Shown piece by piece: positions 13,186-57,276 of a DNA stretch of 64,000 nucleotides; within the stretch, counting starts at the first letter, position 1, and each line of letters opens with the position of its first letter. The DNA is from Psilocybe cubensis (Eukaryota). The position numbers and the translations under genes are program-made. The notes below the pieces were generated by a model. That model was not told the DNA's origin. It saw only the letters and a list, made by a program, of their open reading frames with translations, and made no database searches. The stretch is from assembly GCA_017499595.2 (NCBI GenBank), contig CM039001.1, positions 2,852,001 through 2,916,000 on the forward strand, read 5' to 3'.

Positions 13186-13194
13186 CTCCCCCCT
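13186..13194 (-). promoter_or_regulatory. Polypurine tract (the only one in the array)
   Basis: Purine run AG6AG on the minus strand immediately before the LTR TG. Confidence 0.9.
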
Positions 13195-17772: not shown

Positions 17773-17784
17773 GGGCCCATAACC
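17773..17784 (-). promoter_or_regulatory. PBS (half-tRNA-iMet); repeated at 22257..22268, 26741..26752 and 31225..31236
   Basis: GGTTATGGGCCC on the minus strand adjoining each upstream LTR. Confidence 0.9.
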
Positions 17785-21100: not shown

Positions 21101-21865
21101 CCGCTTTGACACGCTCCTTCGCATCCTTTTGCGCAGCAATGAACTTGTGACACTTGTCCATTGCATGATTGGTCATATCACAAAATGCGCACTTGGGCTT
21201 GGATGCAGAAGGGGCTGGAGCGGTCTGGAATGCGGTGGCGAGTGCAGGCAACTCCGAAGCGCGGTGACGTCGCTGTATGTCCTCTGTGACAAAGGCTTGA
21301 TGAATTGTAGCCTTGTCCAACTTGTCCAAAAGGAGAAGTGAGGATGCAAATGAACTGTACTTTCTGGGAGTGCCCTGACCAGAGCAAGCAAAGCAAGCTC
21401 TTCATCAAGCTTAGCCAGATCAAACCCCTTAGGGCGAAGCTGCTGAATTAGCAACATGGCTTGCTCAACTCTATTGATCAGGGTTTGAAGGTTTTCACCT
21501 TCCTCCTTTCGGATAGAGAACAGATCATCATATGCATTAAAGCGGTTGCCAGGGCGCTTTTGCTGATGTACAGCGGCCAGGGCATCCCACATCTTGATAG
21601 GATCATCCTTGATGGCTTCCACATGAACCCTCTGATCATTCTCCAAACTGAGATAGATCAAACCACATGCTTTGTCTCTCTGCTCCAAGTAGGTTTCAAG
21701 CAAAGCTTCCTCCTGAGCAGTAGGCTTGTCTGAGAGCGTTGGCTGTGCTCTAGCACCGCTGACAATGCGCCATATCCCTTTAGACTGGAGATAGGCGGTC
21801 ATCTGGCCTGCCCAGGTGTTGTAGTTGGTTGAGTTCAATGGAGTGATTTGGGGATCAGAAGTCAT
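18163..21865 (-). pseudogene. pol: Copia gag-pol, unit 2 (RNase H deleted)
   Basis: Same frameshift, stop and YIHG as unit 1. The frame runs from YTDA into LTR sequence. Confidence 0.95.
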
Positions 21866-22268
21866 TATTGCGAATTGCGAAGGAACGCGTAAGCGGATGG
21901 ATACGAGTATTGGTAGTAATGTGTGGGGATGTGTAATGATGTGTGGAAACGAACTAGGCGTTACCCGGAGCTCGGGGTGTTATGCGAACGCAAGTGGAAA
22001 AGACGAAGTTAAACTAGCCTAATTTAAAAGGGTTACTTTTAACTAGAAATAACTCGGGGATTAGGCGACGGGGGCCCGCTCAACCGAGGTTAACAAGTCG
22101 CGTAAGGCGTGCTCGTTCAACCCTACTAGCAGCGGCAATGTATGGCCGGGCCTGGTAGAGGATAAAAACCAAAAAAGACTAAAATGACCGTTTTGTGAAA
22201 ACTATGCAGAAAGCAACTTGGTTCGCAAAACACGGAATTGGAGCGCTTAGAGCGCGGGGCCCATAACC

Positions 22269-22646
22269 TGTTGAAGCAGGCGAGCTCGGGGCAGTGTGAG
22301 CTACTCGGCGACCTAGTTATAGAACGTAGGGCGCAGGGATAAGCGAGCACGAAGCGTCTGAAGTCCGAAGTGAGTAACTGGGTGAATTGAGCAAAGTGCT
22401 AACAAACTAACCTGAAGTCCGAAGTGAGTAACTGGGGACTTCAGGATGTAAACTAGAGTGACTATATACTGTGTAGACTCAAGTACTCTGGTCTACCTAG
22501 GTCTACTCTGGTCCGGTCCAGACCAGTCTATGGACTGATAAATATCATGTATCTAGAATGGTCTGGAGAGCAAATGAAGATAAGAAGAAAGTAATCTAAT
22601 CTGATAAGATAGCAAAGTGAGGGAGACATAGAGAGCAGTTTTAACA
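22269..22646 (-). repeat. Copia A shared internal LTR
   Basis: 378 bp, same junction as at 18162. Confidence 0.97.
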
Positions 22647-25600: not shown

Positions 25601-26349
25601 CTTCGCATCCTTTTGCGCAGCAATGAACTTGTGACACTTGTCCATTGCATGATTGGTCATATCACAAAATGCGCACTTGGGCTTGGATGCAGAAGGGGCT
25701 GGAGCGGTCTGGAATGCGGTGGCGAGTGCAGGCAACTCCGAAGCGCGGTGACGTCGCTGTATGTCCTCTGTGACAAAGGCTTGATGAATTGTAGCCTTGT
25801 CCAACTTGTCCAAAAGGAGAAGTGAGGATGCAAATGAACTGTACTTTCTGGGAGTGCCCTGACCAGAGCAAGCAAAGCAAGCTCTTCATCAAGCTTAGCC
25901 AGATCAAACCCCTTAGGGCGAAGCTGCTGAATTAGCAACATGGCTTGCTCAACTCTATTGATCAGGGTTTGAAGGTTTTCACCTTCCTCCTTTCGGATAG
26001 AGAACAGATCATCATATGCATTAAAGCGGTTGCCAGGGCGCTTTTGCTGATGTACAGCGGCCAGGGCATCCCACATCTTGATAGGATCATCCTTGATGGC
26101 TTCCACATGAACCCTCTGATCATTCTCCAAACTGAGATAGATCAAACCACATGCTTTGTCTCTCTGCTCCAAGTAGGTTTCAAGCAAAGCTTCCTCCTGA
26201 GCAGTAGGCTTGTCTGAGAGCGTTGGCTGTGCTCTAGCACCGCTGACAATGCGCCATATCCCTTTAGACTGGAGATAGGCGGTCATCTGGCCTGCCCAGG
26301 TGTTGTAGTTGGTTGAGTTCAATGGAGTGATTTGGGGATCAGAAGTCAT
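22647..26349 (-). pseudogene. pol: Copia gag-pol, unit 3 (RNase H deleted)
   Basis: ORF set identical to unit 2, offset by 4484. Confidence 0.95.
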
Positions 26350-26752
26350 TATTGCGAATTGCGAAGGAACGCGTAAGCGGATGGATACGAGTATTGGTAG
26401 TAATGTGTGGGGATGTGTAATGATGTGTGGAAACGAACTAGGCGTTACCCGGAGCTCGGGGTGTTATGCGAACGCAAGTGGAAAAGACGAAGTTAAACTA
26501 GCCTAATTTAAAAGGGTTACTTTTAACTAGAAATAACTCGGGGATTAGGCGACGGGGGCCCGCTCAACCGAGGTTAACAAGTCGCGTAAGGCGTGCTCGT
26601 TCAACCCTACTAGCAGCGGCAATGTATGGCCGGGCCTGGTAGAGGATAAAAACCAAAAAAGACTAAAATGACCGTTTTGTGAAAACTATGCAGAAAGCAA
26701 CTTGGTTCGCAAAACACGGAATTGGAGCGCTTAGAGCGCGGGGCCCATAACC

Positions 26753-27130
26753 TGTTGAAGCAGGCGAGCTCGGGGCAGTGTGAGCTACTCGGCGACCTAG
26801 TTATAGAACGTAGGGCGCAGGGATAAGCGAGCACGAAGCGTCTGAAGTCCGAAGTGAGTAACTGGGTGAATTGAGCAAAGTGCTAACAAACTAACCTGAA
26901 GTCCGAAGTGAGTAACTGGGGACTTCAGGATGTAAACTAGAGTGACTATATACTGTGTAGACTCAAGTACTCTGGTCTACCTAGGTCTACTCTGGTCCGG
27001 TCCAGACCAGTCTATGGACTGATAAATATCATGTATCTAGAATGGTCTGGAGAGCAAATGAAGATAAGAAGAAAGTAATCTAATCTGATAAGATAGCAAA
27101 GTGAGGGAGACATAGAGAGCAGTTTTAACA
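26753..27130 (-). repeat. Copia A shared internal LTR
   Basis: 378 bp, same junction as at 18162. Confidence 0.97.
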
Positions 27131-30100
27131 GCATCAGTGTAGGTGACAAAGTTATCATGGCCCACAGCGCCAGAATAAGTCAACTTGTAATCCAGAGTGC
27201 CTCTGAGGTAGCGGAATAAATGTTTAACCGCAGCCCAATGCTTAGGTCCAGGATTGGAGTTGAAGCGTGCCAGATAGGACACAGTAAAAGCAATGTCAGG
27301 ACGGGTCATGGTGGCTAGATACTGCAAGGAGCCAACTGCATTGAGGTAGGGAACATTTCGCATAAATTCCACCTCATCTCCATTCTGAGGTCCATCTGCC
27401 TTGGACAGAACAGTGCCCACAGCCATAGGTGTTTTGACCGGATTAGAATCAGTCATGCCATATGTATCAAGCATATCGAGGATATACTGACGCTGATGCA
27501 AGGAAATGGTTTTAGCAGCCATATCTCGCTCAATGGCAACACCAAGTAAATACTGTGTAGGACCCAGATTACGGAGTTCAAAACGCGCAGCTAGCTGCTT
27601 AACAGCTCTATCTATGGCGGCGTCCGATTTGGAGGCAAAGGTAATGCCATGAATATAAATAGGAACAATAATCTTCACATCTCCATCTGAATAGATGTAG
27701 ACAGAGCGATCTGATTCTATACACTTGAACCCCATATCTAACAATGCCTCATGCAATTTGAGGTTCCATTGATGTGCAGACTGCTTAAGACCATAGAGCG
27801 ACTTTTTGAGCTTCAAAACCATGTTAGGACCACCTTGGTGAAATCCTTCGGGTTGTAGCATGTAAATCTCCTCGTCTAGGTCACCTTTAGTGAAAGCAGC
27901 TGTAATATCAACAGAGCGCAACTTCAAGTCTCCAATAGCGGCCAGAGCCACAATCAAGCGGAAAGTAGCAGGGCGGAAAGTAGGAGCAAAGACCTCATGG
28001 TAATCAATGCCAGGGCGCTGACTGTAGCCCTTGGCAACAATACGAGCCTTGTAGCACTCTATACTGCCATCTGCATTTCGCTTGATTTTAAAGACCCAAC
28101 CACAGCCAATTGCCTTTTGACCCGGAGGGAGCTCAACTCGCTCCCAAGTTTGATTGTGCTGCAACAGATTGAATTCTGTGTTAGCAGCCTCTTCCCACAT
28201 GTGCGCATCAGGCGCTTTCATTGCCTGTTTGAATGTGCGCGGATCTGCGCTTGAAACAAGCCCAGCAAACTCCACCTCTTCAAATCCAGGATCATTGGCT
28301 TCAGGTGGTTCAGGATCATGTGAGACCTTCCACCATTCACCAGGCTGCTTAGGAACGCGAGTAGTGCGTCTCAACGTTGCAGGATCAACTGGAGCACGCT
28401 GGCGGCGTGCAGGCTTAGAAGGAGGTGCAGGAACGGCCTCAGGCTGTGGCGGTTCAGCTGGCTGTTCAGGAGGCGCAATAGGCACTTCTGGCTCAATGAC
28501 AGGACTTGGAGTAGAGTCATCCTCATCATCATTAAAATTGAAGCCATTAGAGTCCCCCCCTGAATTAGGAGGTGGTGCACTTGCAGAAGAAGTGGGAAGA
28601 AGGTCAAACTTTGGCATAGGGCCAGTGGACACCCCAGGGAAGCACCTTTCGTCGAAATCAGCTCTCTCAGAGATAATGAACCTTTTGGTGACTGGGTTGT
28701 AAAACTCCCAGCCCTTGTACCCAGTAGGATACCCAACAAAGATACACTTCTCCATATGAGGCTGCAACGATTTGCGCTTATCTCCCTGAACATAAACATA
28801 TGCAAGGCAACCCCAAACCCTCAAATGACTAACATCAGGTTTGCGCTTGTTCCAGCTTTCATACGGAGTCTTGTCCGGTAGAGGAGCTGTAGGAACACGA
28901 TTCCATACATGCATGTATGCTGCAACACAGCAACCCCAAAACGAAGGTGGTACACGAGCCTCATTGAGCATGGAAGTAACATGTTCTGCCATGGTGCGAT
29001 TTGCACGCTCTGCAACTCCGTTCTGTTGTGGGCGATTTCGCGTTGTATGACGACGCTCAATGCCACACTGGTCAGTGAATTTGATGAAAGCATTTGACAT
29101 GTATTCACCAGCTTTGTCATCCTGCAGCGCTTTGATCTTAAAGCCTAATTTGTTCTCAGCCCATGCTTTGTACGTTTGAAACGCACTGAATGCATCGCTT
29201 TTGCGCTTAAGAAGCACAGCAGCTCTACTCTTTGTATGGTCATCAATAAAGGTTATCCAGTAGCGATAGCCTTCAGGAGTAGGGGGCGAGATAGGACCTT
29301 TCAGATTTGAGAAGATAAGCGCAAGCGGAACATCTGACATGCTTGGTGAAGAAGGAAATGGGTTGGAATGCATCTTGCCTGCAAGGCAAAGTTCACAAAT
29401 GGGGTCAGGCTGTTGCTATGAATTCAGCTTGAGTCCAGTAACCATACTCTCTCTAATTATCTTTTGGAGGTCAGTGTAGCTATGATGAGCAAACCGACGA
29501 TGCCAGAGACTGATATCAAGGGGTAGAGTGGAATTGGAGGAAATGAAGGCAGACTCCGAAATAGGAACTGTATAACCGTTCAATAAAGCGCAGTTTGATG
29601 TACTAACATCTGCAGAGAAGAGACAAGCTCCTTTGCGATGAAACTCCATCAGATTAGCATCAATGGTGATTTTGAAGCCTTTGTGCTTTGTGAGGTATAG
29701 AACAGACAGTAGATTGTTTCGGAGATCTGGTACATGTAAAACTCTAGTTAACTCGACGCCTCTTGACTTTATTCCATTTACAACTGGTTCAAAGAACACA
29801 GTGCCCACCCCTGCAGAATAAATAACTCGTTCATCTGCTAATCGGATTGGAATGCGAAGGGGGGTGTAATTTCTAACCCAATTGCGATGGGGTGTCATAT
29901 GAGAAGTCGCCCCTGTGTCTGCAATCCAATCGTCATTAGTTTGGGGTGAAATGGAAGAGGGAACATTGGTATTAAGAGCACTTGCATTTCCAGCAAATTC
30001 CATGTCCTTGGACTCTTTTTCCTCACTGGATGCCTCTGAGGCCTTGTGCGCTCTATTGCCTTTGCGAACCGCTTTGACACGCTCCTTCGCATCCTTTTGC

Positions 30101-30833
30101 GCAGCAATGAACTTGTGACACTTGTCCATTGCATGATTGGTCATATCACAAAATGCGCACTTGGGCTTGGATGCAGAAGGGGCTGGAGCGGTCTGGAATG
30201 CGGTGGCGAGTGCAGGCAACTCCGAAGCGCGGTGACGTCGCTGTATGTCCTCTGTGACAAAGGCTTGATGAATTGTAGCCTTGTCCAACTTGTCCAAAAG
30301 GAGAAGTGAGGATGCAAATGAACTGTACTTTCTGGGAGTGCCCTGACCAGAGCAAGCAAAGCAAGCTCTTCATCAAGCTTAGCCAGATCAAACCCCTTAG
30401 GGCGAAGCTGCTGAATTAGCAACATGGCTTGCTCAACTCTATTGATCAGGGTTTGAAGGTTTTCACCTTCCTCCTTTCGGATAGAGAACAGATCATCATA
30501 TGCATTAAAGCGGTTGCCAGGGCGCTTTTGCTGATGTACAGCGGCCAGGGCATCCCACATCTTGATAGGATCATCCTTGATGGCTTCCACATGAACCCTC
30601 TGATCATTCTCCAAACTGAGATAGATCAAACCACATGCTTTGTCTCTCTGCTCCAAGTAGGTTTCAAGCAAAGCTTCCTCCTGAGCAGTAGGCTTGTCTG
30701 AGAGCGTTGGCTGTGCTCTAGCACCGCTGACAATGCGCCATATCCCTTTAGACTGGAGATAGGCGGTCATCTGGCCTGCCCAGGTGTTGTAGTTGGTTGA
30801 GTTCAATGGAGTGATTTGGGGATCAGAAGTCAT
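27131..30833 (-). pseudogene. pol: Copia gag-pol, unit 4 (RNase H deleted)
   Basis: ORF set identical to unit 2, offset by 8968. Confidence 0.95.
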
Positions 30834-31236
30834 TATTGCGAATTGCGAAGGAACGCGTAAGCGGATGGATACGAGTATTGGTAGTAATGTGTGGGGATGT
30901 GTAATGATGTGTGGAAACGAACTAGGCGTTACCCGGAGCTCGGGGTGTTATGCGAACGCAAGTGGAAAAGACGAAGTTAAACTAGCCTAATTTAAAAGGG
31001 TTACTTTTAACTAGAAATAACTCGGGGATTAGGCGACGGGGGCCCGCTCAACCGAGGTTAACAAGTCGCGTAAGGCGTGCTCGTTCAACCCTACTAGCAG
31101 CGGCAATGTATGGCCGGGCCTGGTAGAGGATAAAAACCAAAAAAGACTAAAATGACCGTTTTGTGAAAACTATGCAGAAAGCAACTTGGTTCGCAAAACA
31201 CGGAATTGGAGCGCTTAGAGCGCGGGGCCCATAACC

Positions 31237-31614
31237 TGTTGAAGCAGGCGAGCTCGGGGCAGTGTGAGCTACTCGGCGACCTAGTTATAGAACGTAGGGC
31301 GCAGGGATAAGCGAGCACGAAGCGTCTGAAGTCCGAAGTGAGTAACTGGGTGAATTGAGCAAAGTGCTAACAAACTAACCTGAAGTCCGAAGTGAGTAAC
31401 TGGGGACTTCAGGATGTAAACTAGAGTGACTATATACTGTGTAGACTCAAGTACTCTGGTCTACCTAGGTCTACTCTGGTCCGGTCCAGACCAGTCTATG
31501 GACTGATAAATATCATGTATCTAGAATGGTCTGGAGAGCAAATGAAGATAAGAAGAAAGTAATCTAATCTGATAAGATAGCAAAGTGAGGGAGACATAGA
31601 GAGCAGTTTTAACA
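31237..31614 (-). repeat. Copia A LTR (5'-terminal LTR of array)
   Basis: 378 bp, followed on the plus strand by the TSD CTTTG. Confidence 0.97.
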
Positions 31615-31619
31615 CTTTG

Positions 31620-33792
31620 AACCAGTTGTAAATGGAATAAAGTCAAGAGGCGTCGAGTTAACTAGAGTTTTACATGTACCAGATCTCCAAAACAATCTAC
31701 TGTCTGTTCTATACCTCACAAAGCACAAAGGCTTCAAAATCACCATTGATGCTAATCTGATGGAGTTTCATTACAAAGGAGCTTGTCTCTTCTCTGCAGA
31801 TGTCAGTACTTGAACGGTTATACAGTTCCAATTTCAGAGTCTGCCTTAATTTCCTCCAATTCTACTCTACACCTTGATATCAGTCTCTGGCATCGTCGCT
31901 TTGCTCATCATAGCTACACTGACCTCCAAAAGATGATTAGAGAGAGTATGGTTACTGGACTCAAGCTGAATTCACAGCAACAGCCTGACCCCATTTGTGA
32001 ACCTTGCCTTGCAGGCAAGATGCATTCCAACCCATTTCCTTCTTCACCCAGCATGTCAGATGTTCCGCTTGCGCTTATCTTCTCAGATCTGAAAGGTCCT
32101 ATCTCGCCCCCTACTCCTGAAGGCTATCGCTACTGGATGACCTTTATTGATAACCATACAAAGAGTAGAGCTGCTGTGCTTCTTAAGCGCAAAAGCGATG
32201 CATTCAGTGCGTTTCAAACGTACAAAGCATGGGCTGAGAACAAATTAGGCTTTAAGATCAAAGCGCTGCAGGATGACAAAGCTGGTGAATACATGTCAAA
32301 TGCTTTCATCAAATTCACTGACCAGTGTGGCATTGAGCGTCGTCATACAACGCGAAATCGCCCACAACAGAACGGAGTTGCAGAGCGTGCAAATCGCACC
32401 ATGGCAGAACATGTTACTTCCATGCTCAATAAGGCTCATGTTCCACCTTCGTTTTGGGGTCGCTGTGTTGCAGCATACATGCATGTATGGAATCGTGTTC
32501 CTACAGCTCCTCTACCGGACAAGACTCCGTATGAAAGCTGGAACAAGCGCAAACCTGATGTTAGTCATTTGAGGGTTTGGGATTGCCTTGCATATGTTTA
32601 TGTTCAGGGAGATAAGCGCAAATCGTTGCAGCCTCATATGGAAAAGTGTATCTTTGTTGGGTATCCTACTGGGTACAAGGGCTGGGAGTTTTACAACACA
32701 GTTACCAAAAGGTTCATTATCTCTGAGAGAGCTGATTTTGACGAAAGGTGCTTCCCTGGGGTGTCCACTGGCCCTATGCCAAAGTTTGACCTTCTTCCCA
32801 CTTCTTCTGCAAGTGCACCACCTCTCAACTCAGGGGGGGACTCTAATGGCTTCAACTTTGATGATGATGAGGATGACTCTACTCCAAGTCCTGTCATTGA
32901 GCCAGAAGTGCCTATTGCGCCTCTTGAACAGCCAGCTGAACCGCCACAGCCTGAGGCCGTTCCTGCACCTCCTCCTAAGCCTGCACGCCGCCAGTGTGCT
33001 CCAGTTGATCCTGCAACGTTGAGACGCACTATTCGCGTTCCTAAGCAGCCTGGTGAATGGTGGAAGGTCTCACATGATCCTAAACCACCTGAAGCCAATG
33101 ATCCTGGATTTGAAGAGGTGGAGTTTGCTGGGCTTGTTTCAAGCGCAGATCCGCGCACATTCAAACAGGCAATGAAAGCGCCTGATGCGCACATGTGGGA
33201 AGAGGCTGCTAACACAGAATTCAATCTGTTGCAGCACAATCAAACTTGGGAGCGAGTTGAGCTCCCTCCGGGTCAAAAGGCAATTGGCTATGGTTGCGTC
33301 TTTAAAATCAAGCGAAATGCAGATGGCAGTATAGAGCGCTACAAGGCTCGTATTGTTGCCAAGGGCTACAGTCAGCGTCCTCGCATTGATTACCATGAGG
33401 TCTTTGCTCCTACTTTCCACCCTGCTACTTTCTGCTTGATTGTGGCTCTGGCCGCCATTGGAGACTTGAAGTTGCGGTCTGTTGATATTACAGCTGCTTT
33501 TACTAAAGGTGATCTAGACAAGGTGATTTACATGCTGCAACCTGAAGGATTTCACCAAGATGGTCCTAACATGGTTTTAAATCTTAAAATGTTGCTCTAT
33601 AATCTTAAGCAGTCTGCACGTCAATGGAACCTCAGGTTGCATGAGGCATTGTCAGATATGGAGCTTAAGTGTATAGAATCAGATGGCTCTGATCTGGGTT
33701 CTACACAGTATTTACTTGGTATTGCCATTGAGCAAGATATGGCTGCCAAATCCATTTCCTTGCATCAGCATTAGCATATTCTTGATATGCTT
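31620..33792 (+). pseudogene. pol: Copia pol of host copy (PR end, integrase, partial RT)
   Basis: ORF 31783..33774: LWHRRFAH...CEPC zinc finger, QQNGVAER, RYKARIVAKG. A 16-bp deletion frameshifts near 31810, and YxDD is deleted. Confidence 0.94.
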
Positions 33793-43030: not shown

Positions 43031-44649
43031 TGTAGATCAAAGTTTGTGATTAGTTATAAACTATAAGTAATCTAACAAACACAAACCCCAGGGAAAGAAT
43101 GGTCCAGACTAGACAGGACAAAACTTTTACCTAAGTTTCTTAAGGAAGGGTGTTGCCTAGGATTTAAGTAGATTAGGATTGTATAGATAGTGAAGGGTAA
43201 TGAAAGTGAAATAGTAAGAAGTGGATACCTGGGTCTTCTGGGTACAATGGTAAATAAATCTTCAGAAAATAGAATAGAGCTGTGAAATTGGATGACAGGT
43301 GTATATGGAAAGCGTGATGAAGGTGAGTAGGTTGCGTAGAGAAAATTAATAAAGGTGAACCTTAAAGAAGTAGTCTGAAGAGAATTGGGGACGTTTGGGA
43401 GAAAATAAAAAGGTGATCGGGAGTAGGAACATCATTGAATAGCTGAATCTTGGTAAACAGATAGTGAAGATGAAAGATTCCTTAAATTGACAATCTTTCT
43501 GAAGCTTGGAATGAATCGGTATATTGCAGGAGTATTGACTGGATTGAGGGTGAAAGACTAAGTCTGTCTTGAATAAAATCACTCCAGATGAGTTGATGGA
43601 GGGAAGAATGTCTTGAAATAACTCCTAATGGCAATGGTTGGAAGGCATAGAAAGGGAAGATTTGGTAACAGATTGGATGGAGAAGAGGAAGTAAGAAGGT
43701 TCTGGATGTTTGGATAGAAGTGGGATCTTCAACGCTGGGAAGAAGAAGCATTGGAAGAGAAGGAAGACTAGTCTCAGATAAAATCCTCTGTCAATGAAAA
43801 GCAAAATGATTTTGGATGAATGGATGTGAACTTGGTTACGTCAGAGTATGGAACTGATAACTGATTTTGACTTGGGCTTGGGCTTGGGCTTAAACTTGAG
43901 CTTAGAATTGGAATGAATCAATGTGGATTGACTTAAATTGACTTGCTTTGAAGAAAGTGGGGACTGGATGTAACTTTCCTGTCATTTCATGTAATTTTAT
44001 TATAGCTTTTATACTAAAAGCTACGTGAATAAAATACCAATCTAAGCTACTGAAAACCAAATCATATACCATACAAAGTATTAAGAATAAGGCTATACAA
44101 GCATAATAATAAGCAAGAACAATAAAACATGTCAATATTAACACAACAATAGATAAGAAATGAATAGGATGAGTAAGAAAGAAGTGTACAACAAAGGTGA
44201 ATGGTAATACAGATTAGATAAAAGAAGCAAGGATGAGTCAGAAAACATAGAAGATTGGTAAGACAAAGACAATAAAAGTGCCACAGACAATAGAAAAGAT
44301 ATAAATAAACACAAAAGATGAGTAAAACAAACCAAAAATAAATTAATATGAGTAATCTGCAGTCTAATGCTGAGTAAGACCATTGAGTTGATAAAAATAG
44401 AGTTGACAGTCTGGCAGTGCAAGGCAGTGCAGAGTGCTATGAAGTTTGATTGATGACTAATCTGTTGCATAGCCTTGATGATCCAATAGAATGACATGAT
44501 CCGGAATAATGTGGCTCCCATATGACAAGTGTTGATAAAATAAGATGTGTGGATGACTTTGGAAACAGATAACTGCATGGGTTGAGGATGTTATGTATAC
44601 ATAAATCCAATTTGAATATCTCATCACCAATCAAAATTGTGGTATGATA
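43031..44649. mobile_element. Family D ~1.6-kb insertion, copy 2
   Basis: Colinear with 1563..3116. Interrupts the Copia E RT at the YKA(R) motif. Flanked by the 4-bp duplication CTGG/CCGG. Confidence 0.75.
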
Positions 44650-45608
44650 CCGGTTCTGTTTACAAGATTATAAGTAGGAATATGGAAAGGATTATGAAGA
44701 AACCTTTGCTCTTACCATCAAACCTTTAACTTTACATTCCATACTCTCTGTAGCAGCTCACAAAGATGCCATAATTGTCTAGGCAGATGTCAAAAATGCC
44801 TATCTACATGGTACAAACAATCCAAATGAGATTATTTACATAAAGCTACCACAATACTACCTCAACTTCTACAAAGTTCTAGCAAACCTAGCTTATCTAG
44901 ACCTATCTCAAATTGTTTGTAGACTATGGCAGCCACTCTATGGCAGCAAACAAGGTGCATTTTGCTTTTATTAGTTTATCAGCAAGACATTTGCAACCCT
45001 AGAACTCACGGTTAGCCATTCCAACAAAGCACTGTTCTACAAATTCAACAAGGATGGCAGCTATATCATTGTTGGAGCCGCTACAGACAACTTCACTATC
45101 ATTGGAGATTGTGATAAGACCACCAACCAATTCCTCAATACTTTGGAGAAATACATGGAACTAATGCAATTGGGTCCAATTAACTGGCTTCTAGGTACCT
45201 CCGTTGAATGGAATCTTGAAGCACACACAATCAAACTTAGACAAAAAGCATTCATTAACCAAATTGTCACCAAGTTTGGTCAATAAAATGCATACCCCGT
45301 CACCACTCTACTTCTTCCAAACATTGACTTATCTCATGGTCTTTTACACATATCTCCACAACTTGCAACACCAGCAGAGAAATCGAAGTATTGACACTAG
45401 TACCTACCACTGATTATAAAAAACAATAACAAGTGTAAGCACATTCTTCTGAATACTGTTGAAGGGTTTATAAGAAAGAAAATATATATAACATAGATAA
45501 TGAGAATGTTAGTGTATTTTTTATAAGTTTTGTTACACTTTGCTAAAGTTTTTTTATTAGTTATAGAGCACTTTTTTGAGGTTTTTTCATTGATCTTAGT
45601 ATGCTTTT

Positions 45609-45760: not shown

Positions 45761-46219
45761 TTAGGTAGAGACTTAAACAAAAAAATACATCTCCTTACTC
45801 TTTAATCATCTTTATCACCTCCCTCCTAAAACCATTCTCAATCTCTAGAGCGTTTTAAAATACTCTTCCTACATCCAAACTGTCTGACTCTACTCTTCCG
45901 TAGCCTTTTGTGTTATCCACCCTCAACCGTCTCAACAAATTATTCCTAGAAGCTGACTAGCTTTTTCTAGCAATAGAAAGTGAAACTACCTGCTTTGCTG
46001 CTATTCACGAGAATTACAGATTTGTACTGTCAACACTAAATCACCTACTCAGATTCTCGCTTGCTGTTGATTTTCACAATGCTTGTTCTTGCCTTGATTC
46101 TTTGTTTGCCCAGTTTTTGGCTTTACAATCATCTATTGCAGAACTGAGACAGTCTGCAGCTAATCCTGAAAGTATTCACTCCTCTTGTTTCTCAACTCCT
46201 GACAGTCTCCCAGGATGGA

Positions 46220-49200
46220 TACCTACCATTTTTATGATAAAATATAAGCATATGCCAGCACCCTCATATCTTTCTAGCCAAGGGTTAATTAATATGAAAT
46301 CCCAATGACAAGTTATGATATGAATTAAATTTTTCTTTTTATTCTTGTCAGACAGATTTATCATATTTTGCCATAAATCTATTATAACTTGCCATAAATT
46401 TATCATATGTAGATAGATATTAGATATGGAAATTAATGATATATATCATTAAACACATGGCAACATTATGATATAGAATAATATGAAAATTATGATATAG
46501 GGTCTATTAGACAGATTTATCATTATTTGCCATAGATCTATCATTTTTTGCCATAAAATATATCATTAGCAAATGATATAGCCAATATTAGCTAGATTAT
46601 ACTTATCTTATTGTAGATTATCTGTCAGATAATTAGTATCTAACAGACTATCTTATTAGATAGTACCTAGTTATTTTTATAAAGATCTGATCTAGGCATC
46701 TATATCAATGACATCACTGCTTAGCCTTCCCCTTTGCCTCGGCTCCTGGCTCTATAAATAGAGCTCATCCTATGCTACTTTTGGGCATTGCTAGCAATGG
46801 ATTGGGCGCTTTTGGGGGCATTTCTGGACCGTTTCCCTTGGTTTTTTTTGGTAGACCTATAGTTTTAAAGTGTTCCAATTTGAATCTGAAGTCAGAATTG
46901 CAATATCTTTACCCATTCTTCTACAATTAAGCATACAATGTTTTGGCCAAAAAGCGCACCTTGAATAGCACCCTCTAGGGGTTGGTATGCACCTTTTTGA
47001 CTATGCCTTTATTTTTTATTTATGTTAAACGGAGTACATGCCAAGTTTCAGCTCAATTGGAGCAGTAGAACCTATTGAACTAGAATATGCACCCTACCCC
47101 TCCCCCTGCCCCTTGTATGAATGCCTTCCTGATTAGATAAATTCAGGCCCAACTAGGGCTGGGTAGGCGCCTATTATACCAATTTTTAAAGCCCAAAATT
47201 TTGGTGCAATTCTAAGATTTAAGGGTACTACCCCCCACTCCCTCCAGAACTTGTATATTTTATTATGGGATAGAATGACTATTACTAGCACATATAGATA
47301 TGTAATGCTGCTCTAAACAGTAGCATATTTGCATTAAATATCTCTGAAATAATCTACATGAAAAAGAACACCTTGGTTATGAAGCTAATAAGAAGGTATT
47401 GGATGTGCAACATAATATAACCATATCACTGCTTATACTTCACTAAAATGTACATACCTTACATTCCCAAATAGCTACTAAGGTCCTCTACATATTATAT
47501 TAATGGTGCCAAATGGCCAGAATGCTTAACAAGATGGTACAAGAAGAATAAGCATTATTGTTTAAAAATGGAGGAAAAGCAAAATATGATGTGGAAGATA
47601 ACACTTATAAAATACATAAACTATACGGCTGTATAGCTATAAATGACACCTATCTGTGGTATATTGACTCATGGAAATCCAATGAGTATGAGCTGAGATA
47701 TGTCAAAATGTATCTTGGAGGAAAGCCAAAGAGGTGACCACAAACAAAGCATAAATAAAGGCCAATATCCATCCGGGTCTTTGATAGGTTCTTCAACACC
47801 TTTCTTTCCATATCTCAACCACCACTGGTCCGATGCACAACATCCTTGATGTTCTAGAAAGCTAAAGTTTGGGTCTATACTATCCTGCTTTTATATTCTC
47901 TGATTATAATCTTTTATATATGGTAAACGCAAAAATACTATGCATTCTGATGAAGAATGGTATTTTCTCTGCAGCATCTCATCTAATGGATGGATCTCTT
48001 TAGGTGCTAAAATGATATTTAGAAGGCATCAATAGGTATCTGTGGACATCAAGAGTATGAATTATAACGAAGTATTTGTAAAGATATGACCTGATTAATA
48101 ATCTACCATACCTCTTCTCATGCCCCTAGTTAAATCAGTATGTTTCCTTGTTGCAGTGGGCTTTTAAGAGTATTTTTTGGACTCTATGTACTGTTAGTAG
48201 TACATCTACATGTTTTTTAATGGTCTGAAAGCCCATCCTATGGTATAATAAAATACACAAGTTCTGGAGGGAGTGGGGGGTAGTACCCTTAAATCTTAGA
48301 ATTGCACCAAAATTTTGGGCTTTAAAAATTGGTATAATAGGCGCCTACCCAGCCCTAGTTGGGCCTGAATTTATCTAATCAGGAAGGCATTCATACAAGG
48401 GGCAGGGGGAGGGGTAGGGTGCATATTCTAGTTCAATAGGTTCTACTGCTCCAATTGAGCTGAAACTTGGCATGTACTCCGTTTAACATAAATAAAAAAT
48501 AAAGGCATAGTCAAAAAGGTGCATACCAACCCCTAGAGGGTGCTATTCAAGGTGCGCTTTTTGGCCAAAACATTGTATGCTTAATTGTAGAAGAATGGGT
48601 AAAGATATTGCAATTCTGACTTCAGATTCAAATTGGAACACTTTAAAACTATAGGTCTACCAAAAAAAACCAAGGGAAACGGTCCAGAAATGCCCCCAAA
48701 AGCGCCCAATCCATTGCTAGCAATGCCCAAAAGTAGCATAGGATGAGCTCTATTTATAGAGCCAGGAGCCGAGGCAAAGGGGAAGGCTAAGCAGTGATGT
48801 CATTGATATAGATGCCTAGATCAGATCTTTATAAAAATAACTAGGTACTATCTAATAAGATAGTCTGTTAGATAATAATTATCTGACAGATAATCTACAA
48901 TAAGATAAGTATAATCTAGCTAATATTGGCTATATCATTTGCTAATGATATATTTTATGGCAAAAAATGATAGATCTATGGCAAATAATGATAAATCTGT
49001 CTAATAGACCCTATATCATAATTTTCATATCATTCTATATCATAATGTTGCCATGTGTTTAATAATATATATCATTAATTTCCATATCTAATATCTATCT
49101 ACATATGATAAATTTATGGCAAGTTATAATAGATTTATGGCAAAATATGATAAATCTGTCTGACAAGAATAAAAAGAAAAATTTAATTCATATCATAACT

Positions 49201-49291
49201 TGTCATTGGGATTTCATATTAATTAAACCTTGGCTAGAAAGATATGAGGATGCTATCATCTGCTTATATTTTATCATAAAAATGGTAGGTA
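46220..49291. mobile_element. Foldback-like element F: ~1.05-kb inverted arms around a 978-bp spacer
   Basis: 46214..47266 is the reverse complement of 48245..49297, with few mismatches and no net indel. Termini TACCTACCA...TGGTAGGTA. TTGCCATA(A/G)AT subrepeats in the arms. Confidence 0.88.
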
Positions 49292-51176
49292 CCCATCTGA
49301 CTTTGCACACGTTTTCTCCAAGGATAGCTTTGATAAGCTTCCCCCATAACTCCCCTGGACTATGCAATTAATCTCAAACCCAATGCAAAAATAATCAAAG
49401 CTAAGATTTTCCCTTTTTTACCATATAAGCAAAAGAAACTCAAGGAATGGATAGCGGAATAGAAATCGACTGGTCAGATCCGTGATTCAATCTTACCCTT
49501 TGCTTCCACCTATCCAGGACTACCGGAAGCTCAACAATATGACAATTAAAAATTGCTATCTCTTGCCTCTCATTAGCAACCTCATGGACAAGCTCAAGGG
49601 TGCAAAGATTTTTATGAAGCTTGACGTTTGCTGGGGCTTCAATAATGTCTGGATTTGTGAAAGTGACGAGCACAAGGCTGCGTTCATAACGGAATTTGGC
49701 CTGTTTGAACCTTTGGTGATGTTTTTTTTGGCTTGATTAACTCTTCTGTGACATTGCAAAATATGATGAATAATCTTTTCAGGGAGCTCATTGCTAAAGG
49801 ACATGTCATTATTTACATAAATGACATCCTCATCTTCACAGACAATCTCGGCTCACACCGCGTGCTAGTTCAGCGTGTCCTCAATATCCTGGAGACCAAC
49901 AAGCTCTATCTCAAGCCAGAGAAATGTGTCTTCAAACCCACCGAGGTCAACTACCTAGGCGTTATCATTGGCAACAGGTGCCTCAAGATGGACCCAAAGA
50001 AGATCAAAGCTATTATGAACTGGCCTGTCCTATACTGCAAGAAGGATGTACAGCAATTCCTTGGTTTCATCAACTTCTACCAGCGATTCATCAAGGACTT
50101 TTTGAAGATGTCTTCTTGCTTGAACTGTCTTGGCGGTAATGTACCATGGAAGTAGGATCAAGATGAGTCCCTCGCTTTTACATCTTTGAAAGAAGCTTGC
50201 TGTAATGGTATTGTCCTGTCGCTGCCCATTGATAATGCACCCTTCCGCATTAAGGCTGATAGCTTGGGTTATGCCACTGGATGTCAGGGTTTCTCCAGTT
50301 TCTCCTCTTTATCTTCATAGAATTATCTTATTCTTTCATTATCTTATCAATTATCTGATTAGATAGTTTATTTCTTTCATCACAGCCTTCTTGCTCCACT
50401 TTTTTCTAGTAAATTCTATATAATTCCTAGTCTTACTCATCCTTTTTCTATATGATGTCACTTTTATTCTAAAATAGCTGTAGAGTATAATACTGGACTT
50501 GTAGGTAGCTGTAGCTTCAGCTTCAATCTCTTAGGATATCCACTATTATTGGTGTGATCTCTTAGAATCATTGAGTCTCTCTCACACTCTTATTTTCTCT
50601 CTGCTCTCTTACTCTTTCTCTGCTCTCTCTCTCTCTTGCTTGATCTTTGTTGGTGGCCTTGTCACACTAATTATAGTGTTGCCCTGACAGAAGATTGAAG
50701 CTCTCTCAAGACAATTCCACCATCTCTCTTTCAACACCAAACTCTTCACCTCTTCAACCTCTTCAACATCATCACCTCAACCTTTTTCCTCCACTTCCAA
50801 TCTACCAACCCCTTTACCAACCTCTTCACCAATCTCTTTACCAATCTCTACTTCTCCACCAACCTTCAACATCTTCCTTAAGACCTTTCCTCAAGACCTT
50901 TGGCTCATCATCTTTCCTACTCTCTGTTGTGTGCTGTGTGTGAACTTAGTAGATAGGGATACCAACTGTTGGGGTAGACACAGTCCTACTAGTGTTCTGT
51001 TTTTGGTGGTCTAGGAAATATCCAGTAACCCTGTGATCCTAGGTTTAGAGCCCTGAGTGGTGTGACAACTGGGTATCCAGTAGATAGATATTTTTTTAGA
51101 GTATTTAGTATAGTTTCAAGGGCACTTTCAGTAGATAGCTTCTCCCACACACACATCAGAGAGCCTACCCCTACCC

Positions 51177-52286
51177 ATGGACATGGACCCCTCCCAATTG
51201 CCTCCCACCACTCCTTCTATGGAAGAGCTCATGCATCAGGTCCAGCTCCTTACCCAAGAGTTGAATTTTCTTAGACAGCAGCAGCAGTCATCATCCACTC
51301 CACCACACCCTCAGCAACCAGTCAGTCAGTCACCATCATCACCACCACCACCACCACCTGCTGCTCTAGATATTCACTCTTTCCCTACCCCTCATGTTGC
51401 CCCTTCCTGTTCACACTCTGTCATTAAAGTCTCACCTCCAGATCCATTTGATGGTTCTATGGAGAAGGCAAAAAACTTCCTCAGTCAGCTCAAATTATAT
51501 TTCTATGGGAAAGGGATTACAGATAACTTTCAGAAAGTTATTTGTGCTCTATCTCATATAAAAGCAGGTACTGCTGGGAAGTGGGCATATGAGAAGACTA
51601 AAGTAATAGACAATGCTCAGTCCCAAGAAAGTCTTAGGGCTGACTTTGTTTATGAATTTAGGGAAGTGTTTGCAGATTCAGACCCCTCCAACACAGCTAA
51701 GCATAAAATGCACATGCTCAAGCAAGGCAGGCAGACTGCTGATGAGTATGTTGCTAGCTTTAGGGCTCTGATCTCAGATACTGGGTATAATGATGCTGCT
51801 TTGGTAAACCAATTCAAGGCTGGGCTTAATAAAAATCTCAGGAATGCAGTCTACTATGTTCCTGACATGCCCAAAACCTTGGATGGATAGATTAAATGGA
51901 GTATTAGGCTAAATAGGCAGTGGAGACAGAGTAAGGCCTTTACCAAGTCTCTTTCCTTCTCTTCCTCTTCTCCCTTCTTTAAAGCCCCAACTCCCAAGGC
52001 TGTTCCTAAGCCTACTCCAAATCCTCTAGTCTTTTCTAACAGCAGCTTAAGGACCTTTAGTGCTTAGGCAAAGCAACCAGATGTAGTTCCCATGGAGGTT
52101 GACTCTGGATGGAAGTCAGTTAGGCCAATTGTTTGCTTCAAGTACAGAAAGCCTGGTCATAAGGCTGTAAACTGCAGGTCATCAGTTAACATCAATGCCA
52201 TGACCCATGAAGAACTGGCTGACTACTTTGGGAAATTAATCTTGGAAGGCAAGGAGCAGAAAGATAAGGAAAAGAAAAATTTTTAG
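51177..52286 (+). pseudogene. gag: Gypsy B gag
   Basis: PDPFDG, LKQGRQTADEY...F, PMEVD and the degenerate knuckle CFKYRKPGHKAVNC. In-frame stops, e.g. TAG at 51888. Confidence 0.9.
52277..52283 (+). promoter_or_regulatory. Putative -1 ribosomal frameshift heptamer A AAT TTT
   Basis: X XXY YYZ motif immediately before the gag stop. Pol lies in the -1 frame. Confidence 0.65.
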
Positions 52287-52390
52287 AAGCACTATTGGTA
52301 AAAGATATGTCCCAATGGAATAGATTTAATGTACTAGAAAATGAAAATGACAGACTTGATCCTTAGTCTTCAGATTCTGGTGTAGAAATC

Positions 52391-55300
52391 ATGTCTTCTT
52401 CTTCCTCTCTTTCTACCTTCCCTGAAAAGATCTACATCCTCAACCATAATCCTAAAACCTCTACCCATTTGTCTGTCATCTTAAAGACAATGGACACAGA
52501 AAAAAGGTTATCTGTTGATGCTTTGCTTGATTCTGGAGCTACTGGCCTCTTTCTGCATTCTGGTTTTGTGAAGTATCATAATCTCAACACAAGAAAACTT
52601 CCTAGAGCCATTCCAGTCTATAATGTTGATGGTATTCTCAATAAGAGTGGCTCTATCCATGAGGAAGTAGACTTAATTATGGTACACAAGAACCATACAG
52701 AAAGGGCCACCTTTGCTATTTGTGACTTGGGAGACAAATCTGCTATCATTGGACATACTTGGCTTTGGCACCATAATCCAGATGTTGATTGGAAGACAGG
52801 TGATGTTCAGTTCATTAGATGTGCCTCTGACTGCCAAATGGAAGCCAAAAGAGCCAGAAGAAAGAGGCAGAGAATAGCTGCAGTCAAAAGGAGGAAACTC
52901 CCTCAATTTGATGAAGAAGGAGATGATTCTATTGAAGATTCTTCTGATTTTGAGATTGAGCTTGAGGACAGAATTTTTATCTCATATCTTCATCCTCAGA
53001 AGCAGTCTATTAATGCTACTTCTACTATGTCTCAAAGATTAGCAGAAGAGTCTCATTAGCAAGCTGATTCTCCTAAGAAAACCTTTGAAGAAACTGTTCC
53101 TAAGCACTATCATCAGTTTAAAGGTGTTTTTTCAAAGGAATCTTTTGATAGGCTACCAGACAGAAAGCCTTGGGATCATGCTATTGAGCTGAAACCTGGT
53201 TCTAAACCTTACAGATCCAAGATTTATTCTCTTTCTCCCAATGAACAAAAGGAACTTAATGCCTTTTTAAAGAAAAATCTGAAATCTGGCAGGATTAGAC
53301 TCTCCAAGTCACCTATGGCCTTTCCTGTATTCTTTGTCAAGAAGAAAGATGGATCTCTTAGGCTTGTCCAGGACTATAGGAAACTGAATGAAATGACCAT
53401 CAAGAACTCCTACCCCCTTCCATTGATTTCTGACATTATCACCAAACTCAGCAAAGCCAAATACTTCACCAAACTTGATGTTAGGTGGGGATTTAACAAT
53501 GTCAGAATCAAAAAGGGAGATGAATGGAAAGCAGCCTTTAGAACCAATAGAGGGCTGTTTGAACCATTGGTCATGTTCTTTGGTTTAACCAATAGTCCTG
53601 CTACCTTCCAAACTATGATGAATGATATCTTTATTGAGCTCATTGATGGAAATGTTGTCATTGTCTACATGGATGATATTTTAATTTTTACTGAGACTCT
53701 TGATTATCATAGAGAGGTAGTCAAGCAAGTTCTGCAAATCCTAGAACAGAACAAACTCTACCTTAAAGCAGAGAAATGTGAATTTGAAAAGGAAAAGATT
53801 GAATATCTTGGACTAATCATTTCACAAGGCAGGATTGAGATGGATCCTGTCAAGGTAGAGGGAGTTTCTAAATGGCCTGAACCTGAAAATGTCAAGGATG
53901 TCCAATCATTCTTGGGATTTGTTAATTTTTATAGAAGGTTCATAGAGGATTTTGCAGACATTGCTAAGCCCCTTCATGAATTGACAAAGAAAGGAACAGT
54001 CTGGAGATGGAGTCTTAGACAGCAGGAAGCCTTTGACCAATTAAAGAAGAAAGTCACTTCTTCACCTGTCTTGATTTTCCCTGATGATAACAAGCCATAT
54101 AAAATTGAAGCAGACAGTTCAGATTATGCTACTGGGGCTGTTTTATCTCAGGAAGGATCAGATGGGAAATGACATCCTGTAGCCTTTATGTCTAAGAGTC
54201 TATCTGAAGTAGAAAGGAATTATGAGATCCATGACAAAGAGATGCTGGCTATTATCAGAGCACTAGATGAATGGAGACATTATCTTGAAGGAACCCAACA
54301 TTTCTTTGAGATTTGGACAGACCACAAAAACTTAGAATACTTTATGGTTGCCCAAAAGCTTAGCAGAAGGCAAGCCAGATGGTCACTCTTCCTGTCCAGA
54401 TTTGATTTTACTCTTCATCATAGGCCTGGTAAAAGATCTCTTAAGCCAGATGCTTTGTCTAGGAGACCAGATCATAAAAAGGGGGAGAATGATAACCAAA
54501 ATGTAGTTCTCCTCAAACCTTCCTACTTTAAAATCCAGGCTCTCAAGCAGGGTCATGCTACCATTACTGGTGCAGAAAATGATCTTCTTAAAAAGATTAG
54601 AGAAGCTAAGGAGATGGATGAAAAGGTGGTCAAAGCAGTTCAGGAGCTTAAGAAATCTTCTACCAAGAAGATTGAAGGACAGGAATGGTCAGAAAAACAA
54701 GGCCTTATTCTCTACAGGGGGAAGGTGTATGTTCCCAAGGACAAAGATCTTAGAAGAAAGATTGTAGAACTGCACCATGATGCCTTCATTGCTGGACATT
54801 CAGGGAAATGGAAGACAATTGAGGTAGTCTCTAGGAATTATTGGTGGCCAGGAATGTCACATTTTATTGCAGCCTATACCAGAGGTTGTAATAGATGCAA
54901 CAGAACCAAAACCTTTCCAGCCAAACCTCTTGGCCTTTTAATTCCTACTGAGATTCTCTCTGATGTCTGGCAATGCATCTCTGTGGACTTTATTATGGAG
55001 TTACCAGAATGTCAAGGGTATAATGCCATTATGGTGGTTGTGGATAGACTTAGTAAAATGATCCACATTATCCCTACTACAGATGAAATCACTTCTGAAG
55101 GGACAGCCAGACTATACAGAGATTATGTCTGGAAACACCATGGCTTACCTATTAAAATTCTGTGTGATAGAGGTACACAGTTTGTCTCAAGGTTTATGAA
55201 AGAACTCAACTCAATACTTGGTATCTAGACAGCCTCATTTACAGCCTACCATCCCCAAACTGATGGTCAGACTGAAAGAGTTAACCAAGAAATTGAGCAG

Positions 55301-56164
55301 TATCTTAGACTCTTTATAAACCATAGACAAGATGATTGGGTTGAATGGTTAGCTCTAGCTGAATTCTCTTATAACAATAGAGTTCAGGCTTCAACCAGAC
55401 AGACACCATTTATGCTCAATAATGGCAGACATCCCAGAATGGGCACTGAACTCCTTAAAGATAGTAAAATGGACACTGAGGATACCTTTGTGAAAAATAT
55501 GGAAAAAGCTAGAAAAGAAGCAAAGTCTGCACTTAGAAAAGCTACTAATGATATGGCTAAATTCTATAATAGACACAGAGGTACTCCAACTCAGTACAAA
55601 GTTGGGGATTTGGTATGGTTGGATGGCAAGGACCTCAAAACTAATAAGCCCTCCAAGAAATTGGATGATAAAAGATATGGGCCTTACAAAATTACCAAAG
55701 TTATTAGCCCTAATGCCTATGAGCTTAAGCTGCCATCTACCATGAAAATCCATCCAGTGTTTAATGTGGTTAAACTTTTACCTTATCACCCAGATATTGT
55801 AGGAAGAAAGCCTCCTTCTAGACCACCTCCTGTCATTCAAGGAGAAAATCCTGAGTGGGAAGTTGAATTTATCAAGGACAGCAGACTTTTTAGAAACAAA
55901 CTTCAATATTTGGTCAAGTGGAAGAACTATCCTAATGAAGAATGCACTTGGGAGCCTGCAGAGCATTTGAAAAATGCTTCTAAGGCTATCAAAAACTTCC
56001 ATGCCAAACACCCTTCAGCACCTAGAAGGATTTCTGCTGTGACCTTTGATAGACTTTCTTTCACTCCTATTATTAACTTTACTGAACCTCCTCCTCTTCT
56101 TAAACCCTCTAAACTAACCCATCCATGTGCACATTGTGGAAAATGTGCCTTAGAGAGGGTGTGA
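52391..56164 (+). pseudogene. pol: Gypsy B pol (PR-RT-RNase H-integrase-chromodomain)
   Basis: LLDSGA, YMDD, TDHKNL, VVVDRLSK, YGPY and WEVEFIKDSR..LQYLVKWKNY..CTWEP. One reading frame with stops at 53057, 54170 and 55226. Confidence 0.95.
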
Positions 56165-56875
56165 TGTCAGGGTTTTTCCAGTTTCCCCTCTTTATTTTCA
56201 CAGAATTATCTTATCCTTTCATTATCTTATCAATTATCTAATTAGATAGTTTATTTCTTTCATCACAGCCTTCTTGCTCTACTTTTTTCTAGTAAATTCT
56301 ATATAATTCCTAGTCTTACTCATCCTTTTTCTATATGATGTTATTTTTATTCTTTAACCTTCCTTTATGATGTAATGTAGAGAATATTCTAGAATAGCTG
56401 TAGAGTATAAATACTGGACTTGTAGGTAGCTGTAGCTTCAGCTTCAATCTCTTAGGATATCCACTATCATTGGTGTGATCTCTTAGAATCATTGAGTCGA
56501 CACTGAGTGGAACTATGAAATCCATGACTGCGAGCTACTTTCAATTATGCGCTCACTCTCAGATTGGCAGCAATACCTCCATGGCTGCGACACACCCGTG
56601 GAGATTCATAGTGACCATAAAAATCTTCAGTACTTCATGACCGCGCAAAAGCTAAACTGTCGACAAGCCCGTTGGTCCCTTGAATTAGCTGAGTTCAACT
56701 TTGTTTTAATCCACAAACCAGGCTCATTAATGGTTTGTGCAGATGCCCTGTCCCAAAAGCCAGATTACAATAAAGATAGAAAGAACAATGTCAACATTAC
56801 ACTCATCAAGCCAGAACACATCTGGCGCACATCAGGCCTTGATCTTGCTAACAACAAACTGCTGACTGAGATCAC

Positions 56876-57276
56876 TGTCAGGGCAACACTATAATTAGTG
56901 TGACAAGGCCATCAACAAAGATCAAACAAGAGAGAGAGAGAGCAGAGGAAGAGTAAGAGAGCAGAGAGAAAATAAGAGAGTGAGAGAGACTCAATGATTC
57001 CAAGAGATCACATCAATGATAGTGGATATCCTAAGAGATTGAAGCTGAAGCTACAGCTACCTACAAGTCCAGTATTTATACTCTACAGCTATTTTAGAAT
57101 AAAAGTGACATCATAGGATAAGTAAGACTAGGAATCATATAGAATTTACTAGAAAAAAGTGGAGCAAGAAGACTGTGATGAAAGAAATAAACTATCTAAT
57201 CAGATAATTGATAAGATAATGAAAGGATAAGATAATTCTGTGAAGATAAAGAGGAGAAACTAGAAAAACCCTGACA
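56876..57276 (-). repeat. Solo LTR of Gypsy family B
   Basis: Reverse complement of the B LTR with intact TGTCAGGG/CCCTGACA ends. Flanks ATCAC / ATTGC. Confidence 0.94.

Follow-up and report, generated by a model that had tools for sequence, protein, structure and literature searches.

The 64,000-nt stretch of Psilocybe cubensis contig CM039001.1 considered here (positions 2,852,001 to 2,916,000, forward strand; 'the window' in what follows) contains at 50282-56498 an element, B, which is a decayed copy of an abundant Ty3/Gypsy chromovirus (Metaviridae) of an Agaricales fungus and which does not have a single CG dinucleotide. It interrupts another Gypsy element, C, in the latter's RNase H region. 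There are also two solo long terminal repeats (LTRs) of the B family, one of them, like B itself, inside C and the other adjoining a Copia array. The best named protein match to B is from Agrocybe pediades (94% identity) and the second is from Psilocybe cf. subviscida (92%).

Element B and its surroundings

A reading of the sequence alone, done by eye, had reported B and the two solo LTRs to be devoid of CG, with the first CG coming at the 3' junction of B, and neighbouring C and Copia sequences to have kept theirs. Direct counting bears this out in each respect. In the 6217 nt of B (GC content 39.5%) there are 0 CG against 241.3 expected, and there are 0 in either solo LTR. The nearest CGs are at 50246 upstream and at 56498/56499 downstream, and the CG-free run from 50246 to 56498, 6252 nt, is the longest of the window, the runner-up being 1233 nt. 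Since the observed/expected ratio (o/e) of the GC dinucleotide in B is 0.85, the lack of CpG does not come from a general shortage of C and G, and the ratios for TG (1.17) and CA (1.12) are below those of most of the window. The rest of the window has an overall CpG o/e of 0.41, and the neighbouring transposons retain CpG at o/e 0.12-0.58: the upstream flank of element C (48000-50281) has 27 CG (o/e 0.34), its second flank 59 (0.40) and the Copia region 8200-34000 has 812 (0.58), with older AT-rich remnants at 0.12-0.28.

In other respects B has a familiar anatomy (Table 1). The order protease, reverse transcriptase (RT), RNase H and integrase following gag matches the Ty3/Gypsy chromovirus layout, and among open reading frames and Pfam matches no gene was found beyond the set usual for an LTR element; the protease is represented by its motif, no Pfam match for it having reached E 0.001. 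The complete LTR is the 5' one of 408 nt, the 3' LTR being truncated, which corrects the first reading, and loose read ends in sequencing runs pile up at 50689/50690 and 56164/56165, the LTR boundaries. The three internal stops earlier counted in the pol frame are there, and 1071 of 1439 family reads have, after 51163, 4 nt that are missing from gag of the window copy. With ~112 nt of the 3' LTR and ~24 codons of C both gone, a deletion must have taken the junction 56498/56499, leaving the target-site duplication of B itself unreadable. A 37-nt segment is present in the 3' LTR of B and in solo LTR 1, and absent from the 5' LTR and solo LTR 2, which suggests that the two LTRs of B are different variants brought together by recombination or gene conversion between copies. 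Dating of the insertion by LTR divergence was rejected on account of this segment, as B may be a recombinant.

In Tf1/sushi-type self-priming the primer-binding site pairs not with the 3' end of a tRNA but with the ~11 nt at the start of the element's own transcript. The primer-binding site of B has no tRNA-type TGG start; it exactly complements an 11-nt stretch in the LTR, for which chance, by our own arithmetic, is ~0.002. The 11-nt self-complement is also in the relative L001 described below (4117 / 4247), and in another, L002 (3802 / 3920), it is kept by way of two compensatory double changes. The arrangement fits self-priming of reverse transcription, with the transcript start being a putative one.

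Table 1. Features of element B, its solo LTRs and the interrupted element C, in window coordinates
Feature	Coordinates	Strand	Remarks
B 5' LTR	50282-50689	+	408 nt, TG...CA, 8-nt inverted ends, 0 CG
TATA-like box in LTR	50486-50490	+	~30 nt upstream of putative transcript start
11-nt stretch in LTR, putative transcript 5' end and self-primer	50519-50529	+	exact complement of primer-binding site
Primer-binding site, self-priming type	50692-50702	+	2 nt past LTR
gag	51135-51890	+	Ty3_capsid, Retrotrans_gag (Pfam); Arg codons 6/6 AGR
pol frame	52367-56164	+	internal stops at 53057, 54170, 55226; Arg codons 75/75 AGR
Protease DSG motif	52523-52546	+	motif only
RT (RVT_1)	53336-53821	+	Pfam
RNase H (RT_RNaseH)	54008-54403	+	Pfam
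Integrase zinc domain (Integrase_H2C2)	54740-54913	+	Pfam
Integrase core (rve)	54971-55222	+	Pfam; match ends at stop 55226
SH3 (SH3_Tf2-1)	55604-55789	+	Pfam
Chromodomain at integrase C-terminus (Chromo, PF00385)	55856-56005	+	Pfam; E = 3.9e-16
Polypurine-tract-like purine run	56152-56159	+	just upstream of 3' LTR
B 3' LTR, truncated	56165-56498	+	without last ~112 nt; 0 CG
Solo LTR 1, B family	7738-8187	+	450 nt; clean 5-bp target-site duplication; 0 CG
Solo LTR 2, B family	56875-57276	-	402 nt; inside element C; flanking 5-mers agree 3/5; 0 CG
Host Gypsy element C, RT/RNase H part	49302-50281	+	upstream of B
Host element C continued (RNase H)	56499-56875	+	~24 codons of C gone at junction

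CpG avoidance across a clade

The codons of B tell how its proteins have been accommodated to the absence of CpG. As had been noticed for the Arg codons sampled earlier, all 81 in gag and pol are AGA or AGG (AGR), as are 75/75 in L001, 81/81 in L002, 77/80 in L003, 36/38 in L004 and 43/43 in L043, whereas in 11 control frames Arg is mostly encoded by CGN. Codons ending in CG (TCG, CCG, ACG and GCG) are absent from the CpG-free clade formed by B and its close relatives. Avoidance extends across codon boundaries: there are 0 C|G junctions in B pol against 61.9 expected, and 0 against 27-92 in the clade's long pol frames. Among the codons of B pol that stand before one not beginning with G, 222 of 912 end in C; among those that stand before one beginning with G, 0 of 353 do. 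Only synonymous choices are thus used to avoid CpG, and the proteins are unaffected. At alignment columns where B and a control share Arg, B has AGR opposite a CGN codon of the control in 34/41, 42/47, 20/28, 21/26 and 18/19 cases, and of the 21 columns with Arg in four or five of five controls, B retains it at 17. A change from CGN to AGR is beyond the reach of deamination. The dinucleotides in excess in the clade are AG and CT instead of TG and CA. The overall picture is of a composition long equilibrated and selected and not of recent decay.

Relatives were sought by scanning metagenomes with the 370-aa RT segment of B. The search patterns were degenerate back-translations of peptides, so that the scan was not biased toward CpG-free DNA, and the best 80 of 544 confirmed relatives were kept. 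All six loci with at least 76% RT identity to B have 0-3 CG against 96-302 expected, over 2.5-5.6 kb: L017 (91% identity; 0 CG against 96 expected), L001 (84%; 0 against 236), L002 (80%; 0 against 302), L003 (80%; 3 against 235), L004 (77%; 2 against 105) and L043 (76%; 0 against 116). In the other 74 of 74 kept loci, with RT identity of 71% or less, the whole-locus CpG o/e is 0.10-1.20 (Fisher p = 3e-9 for the split by RT identity). Altogether the clade has 5 CG in 29,932 nt where 1331 would be expected; the GC content of its members ranges between 39% and 47%. L001 and L002 each cover pol, LTR and gag, so their non-coding parts are also CpG-free, and among the relatives pol is open over stretches of 1293, 1185, 1356 and 801 aa. 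The five residual CGs (L003 3726, 3774 and 4479; L004 1034 and 1181) are all in CGN Arg codons at which every aligned clade member has Arg; these are places where loss by transition would alter the protein. A scan of IMG/VR yielded 2 distant loci only (42-53% identity), which were unused.

An RT tree of 82 rows, comprising the 80 loci together with B and C, was built by the quick search of IQ-TREE. All seven CpG-free rows fall on a single branch of it, with an SH-aLRT of 97 and one state change, as low a number as was reached in 0 of 500 label shuffles. A larger tree (FastTree, 163 rows) added 82 database proteins, P0002-P0006 and P0122-P0199 without P0171, chosen from 240 listed matches; its smallest clade with all seven has 60 rows and 0 of the 74 CpG-bearing controls inside it. 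Nucleotide identity of pol within it is 66-75%, and 43-52% of the codons for identical residues differ synonymously. The synonymous divergence dS (NG86) is 1.5-3.6 in 11 of 15 clade pairs, with the remaining 4 of 15 saturated beyond computation, and the ratio of non-synonymous to synonymous divergence (dN/dS) is 0.05-0.13. With dS saturated and dN/dS low, the clade has kept CpG out through more than one turnover of its synonymous sites, its proteins being under purifying selection.

The B family itself is present in sequencing runs. Eleven runs, from four studies and under five organism labels, each have 42-49% of B's 31-mers, and four of them, three contig sets (X1, X7 and X10) and one set of raw reads (X17), were aligned to B. 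The depth on B in X17 is ~1450 from 1632 million letters read, from which, if the genome is ~45 Mb (contigs of sister runs amount to 41-47 million letters), a rough copy number of ~40 may be inferred. Going from the window copy to the family majority in X1, T becomes C at 68 places and A becomes G at 50, with C to T at 23 and G to A at 7. The sequence context of the differences was followed at 40 of 265 differing places in X1, X7, X10 and X17, and 0 of the 40 would give the family majority a CG: none of 20 T-to-C sites is at TG and none of 11 A-to-G sites is at CA. Given how often TG and CA occur in B, such an outcome has a chance of ~4e-4. Flanks read past the LTR ends in the same runs do carry CG. 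Intact young copies of B rich in CpG were looked for, and there were none in any examinable sequence. The sequence-only reading had proposed that loss of CpG was fixed in the active lineage rather than acquired by decay after insertion, and this has stood up: the family majority, the six CpG-free relatives, their union in one clade, the saturated dS and the exchange of CGN for AGR all agree with it.

Selection, mutation and the alternatives

What keeps CpG out? It seems probable that the clade purged CpG from LTRs, untranslated regions and coding sequence alike, and that selection has since kept it out. Both selection as the maintainer of the CpG-free state and methylation or mutagenesis as the selective agent are what we infer from the sequences. 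As the likeliest advantage, an element without CpG would offer no substrate to the host's CpG-directed genome defence. Heritable CpG methylation would be impossible on it even where the chromodomain integrase lands it in methylated repeats and, there being no hotspots for deamination of 5-methylcytosine, its Arg codons would be spared destruction. Escape from silencing has an even chance of having been the main driver; avoidance of mutational load, the two not being exclusive, is a possible though rather doubtful candidate for that role. The escape from CpG methylation and its mutagenesis envisaged in the sequence-only reading fits the data. What was found has the form of a lineage adaptation to the host's methylation or mutation target: members that are intact, diverged and under purifying selection are without the motif, and sister lineages have it.

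As regards the defence itself, Agaricales are reported to methylate cytosine almost exclusively at CpG, with transposons as the target and in connection with their repression. In Pleurotus ostreatus (Agaricales) methylation stands at 4.0% for CpG and at 0.5-0.6% for CHG/CHH and is concentrated in the repeats; LTR/Gypsy families of this fungus show 26-59% methylation and are repressed (PMC6191308). Horns et al. note an excess of CpG transitions in Agaricomycotina (PMC3318451). We see the scales as level for the proposal that a complete lack of CpG evolved, in a clade of Agaricales chromoviruses that spans species, as a 'stealth' against heritable DNA methylation, to which they would be invisible even within methylated heterochromatin, where the chromodomain takes them. 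If true, stealth would explain the abundance of the clade and its many intact copies, and the clade would take in at least 53 more database proteins, including the Agrocybe pediades and Psilocybe cf. subviscida ones.

Several observations weigh against selection for the absence of CpG, beginning with those on which mutation alone could draw. Heavy CpG methylation, or a CpG-specific process of the kind carried out by deaminases or resembling repeat-induced point mutation (RIP), might have removed CpG with selection acting only on the protein and with no benefit to expression. A CpG-biased C-to-T hypermutation of repeats is described for Tricholoma matsutake, also of the Agaricales (PMC6980582). 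In B pol the third base is T in 170 of 353 codons before a G codon and in 317 of 912 before others, and the five residual CGs, in conserved Arg codons, are what a purge filtered through the protein would leave. We nevertheless regard mutation pressure alone as unlikely. The 95-100% switch of Arg codons to AGR needs C-to-A transversions, which deamination does not make, and the dinucleotide excess is on AG/CT instead of TG/CA. The rate that would be needed is also out of proportion to that measured next door. In Copia copies of the window the per-site frequency of transitions at CpG is higher than that at other C/G positions by a factor of 1.9-4.6 (0.226/0.049, 0.124/0.027, 0.099/0.048 and 0.086/0.045), a hypermutability that predicts an o/e of a few tenths, as in the neighbours, and not zero. 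A rough equilibrium estimate, from the clade's 4455 TG+CA and 5 CG and a per-site ratio of AT-to-GC to GC-to-AT change of ~1:6, puts the CpG loss needed at tens to hundreds of times the non-CpG C-to-T rate. Moreover a lower mutational load of AGR codons is itself selection against CpG, so that here the mutational account merges with part of the explanation we favour. The host hypermutability estimate, it should be said, comes from one Copia array in one window.

A rather less likely possibility is selection on RNA, in which CpG in the genomic RNA would be penalized by a restriction factor that senses it or through the stability or translation of the RNA. Counting for it, and against a selection peculiar to DNA, the U3, R and U5 parts of the LTR, the untranslated regions, gag and pol are all in the full-length RNA, and since every CpG-free part is also in RNA the two kinds of selection are inseparable. 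The analogy is with vertebrate retroviruses, in which CpG is suppressed, and avoidance of CpG is known in viruses (PMC2396429, PMC7755226). Against it stand the ordinary CpG levels of the 74 related chromoviruses that fall outside the clade. The neighbouring repeats, with low CpG, raised TG/CA and excess CpG transitions, have the DNA-level signature expected of CpG methylation and decay. To our knowledge no sensor of CpG in RNA is known in fungi.

That B arrived with normal CpG and lost it after insertion by methylation-driven deamination, as the 11 transition differences between its LTRs, the three stops and the ~2.4% divergence from the family majority might suggest, is scarcely credible and was rejected, given that the family majority has no CG at the 40 places followed, that Arg was kept as AGR, that TG and CA are not in excess, that the six close relatives, among them ones with intact frames, are CpG-free and that indices of RIP are negative. 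A relic decayed by deamination would have TpG/CpA in place of CpG, Arg codons changed to Cys, His, Gln, Trp or stop, and intact relatives that bear CpG, and B does not show this.

In RIP of the Neurospora type TpA/ApT is above ~0.89 and (CpA+TpG)/(ApC+GpT) below ~1.03, with a bias for CpA to become TpA. B has 0.83 and 1.52, respectively, and RIP of this type was rejected. Of the 31 C-to-T or G-to-A changes seen at the 40 of 265 places, 16 fall in a CpA context where 10.7 would be expected, a weak excess without statistical significance.

With selection for a CpG-free sequence still preferred, the remaining considerations on the other side concern its support and the fate of B. In the 163-row tree support for the CpG-free clade is down to 76-78. 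CpG status rests on seven clade members, and the hosts of the six metagenomic ones could overlap. The 40 of 265 differing places seen leave room for minority CpG-bearing copies that the family may have. The window copy is dead, having three stops, the 4-nt gap in gag and a truncated LTR, and it has T or A where the family has C or G at 118 places, the reverse being so at 30 (X1). CpG-freeness, then, gives copies no protection from decay. Against the family (X1) the transitions and transversions of B are 148:12, compared with 163:36 for the Copia copies or 111:36 when CpG sites are left out (Fisher p = 0.005 and 6e-5, respectively). A further C-to-T process therefore acts on copies of B. Such decay outside CpG may hint at a host back-up against an element that cannot be methylated. 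Pairwise, the four aligned LTR copies of the B family have transitions and transversions of 11:0, 13:1, 18:1 and 18:1, and changes with respect to the family majority are mostly from C/G to T/A.

Known systems and neighbouring repeats

B resembles the Tf1/Tf2-like chromoviruses of basidiomycetes in its layout (LTR, gag, protease, RT, RNase H, integrase and chromodomain), in SH3_Tf2-1, in the 5-bp target duplication, in insertion into other repeats and in the 11-nt self-priming complement. What sets its clade apart from the 74 sampled chromoviruses outside it, with their CpG o/e of 0.10-1.20 and mostly CGN Arg codons, is that it is essentially without CpG.

ONSEN (ATCOPIA78) of Arabidopsis is reportedly poor in CG and CHG sites, and there too the composition of a retrotransposon would cut the substrate of maintenance methylation. 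The depletion in ONSEN is reportedly partial, and its host also methylates CHH. In the B clade the loss is complete and clade-wide, synonymous divergence is saturated and the hosts, by what is reported, methylate little besides CpG.

Another parallel is provided by transposons of Microbotryum in which TpCpG is scarce where C-to-T would be non-synonymous (PMC3318451). Like B, these are basidiomycete transposons fitted to the motif at which a C-to-T defence of the host is aimed; unlike them, with their partial trinucleotide bias and Pucciniomycotina hosts, the B clade of the Agaricales is without CpG at synonymous, codon-junction and non-coding sites. The same study found no RIP-like hypermutation in the three species of Agaricomycotina that it covered. 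CpG suppression in vertebrate retroviruses, RNA viruses and small DNA viruses is likewise a parasite-wide avoidance of a dinucleotide that the host reads (PMC2396429, PMC7755226), though there CpG is suppressed and the agents are vertebrate-specific, while members of the B clade are CpG-free chromosomal retrotransposons of fungi. Some fungal DNA transposons encode TET/JBP dioxygenases (PMC12730594), also a transposon strategy aimed at 5-methylcytosine. Theirs is enzymatic removal of the mark; in the B clade it is the sequence itself that lacks the substrate.

No description of a CpG-free transposon lineage was found in the full-text literature, outside which lie most subscription journals and supplementary files. 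B itself is an ordinary chromovirus; the new form of transposon counter-defence is the complete, clade-wide absence of CpG, presumably maintained by selection. If that is right the clade would be, within the literature searched, the first transposon lineage known to have removed the methylation substrate entirely, and a natural experiment on the share of CpG methylation in fungal transposon control. The usual evidence for an arms race between transposons and DNA methylation is a partial bias; here the signal is all-or-none. With CpG-free and CpG-bearing Gypsy elements sharing one genome, the role of methylation is directly comparable between them. A practical corollary is that methylation calls based on CpG, and screens by CpG o/e, will miss elements of the B clade. 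A full retroelement is evidently encodable without CpG at no cost to its proteins.

An Rfam scan of the window gave 0 matches. Several of its other repeats deserve mention. The Copia sequences form a Ty1/Copia tandem array on the minus strand at 8193-33695, in which four 4484-bp units at 13692-31614 are 99.2-99.7% identical and are bordered by diverged direct and inverted partial copies (95-97%) at 8193-13187 and 31615-33695. An old pair of repeats, 1603-3117 and 43129-44650, has 84% identity with 204 transitions and 32 transversions, and the remnants around it have a GC content of 29-35% and a CpG o/e of 0.03-0.28; this suggests that repeats in this genome have long been subject to strong decay from GC to AT. 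Just upstream of the B-bearing part of element C there is an inverted duplication of 1053 bp, 46214-47266 and 48245-49297, whose arms are 99% identical.

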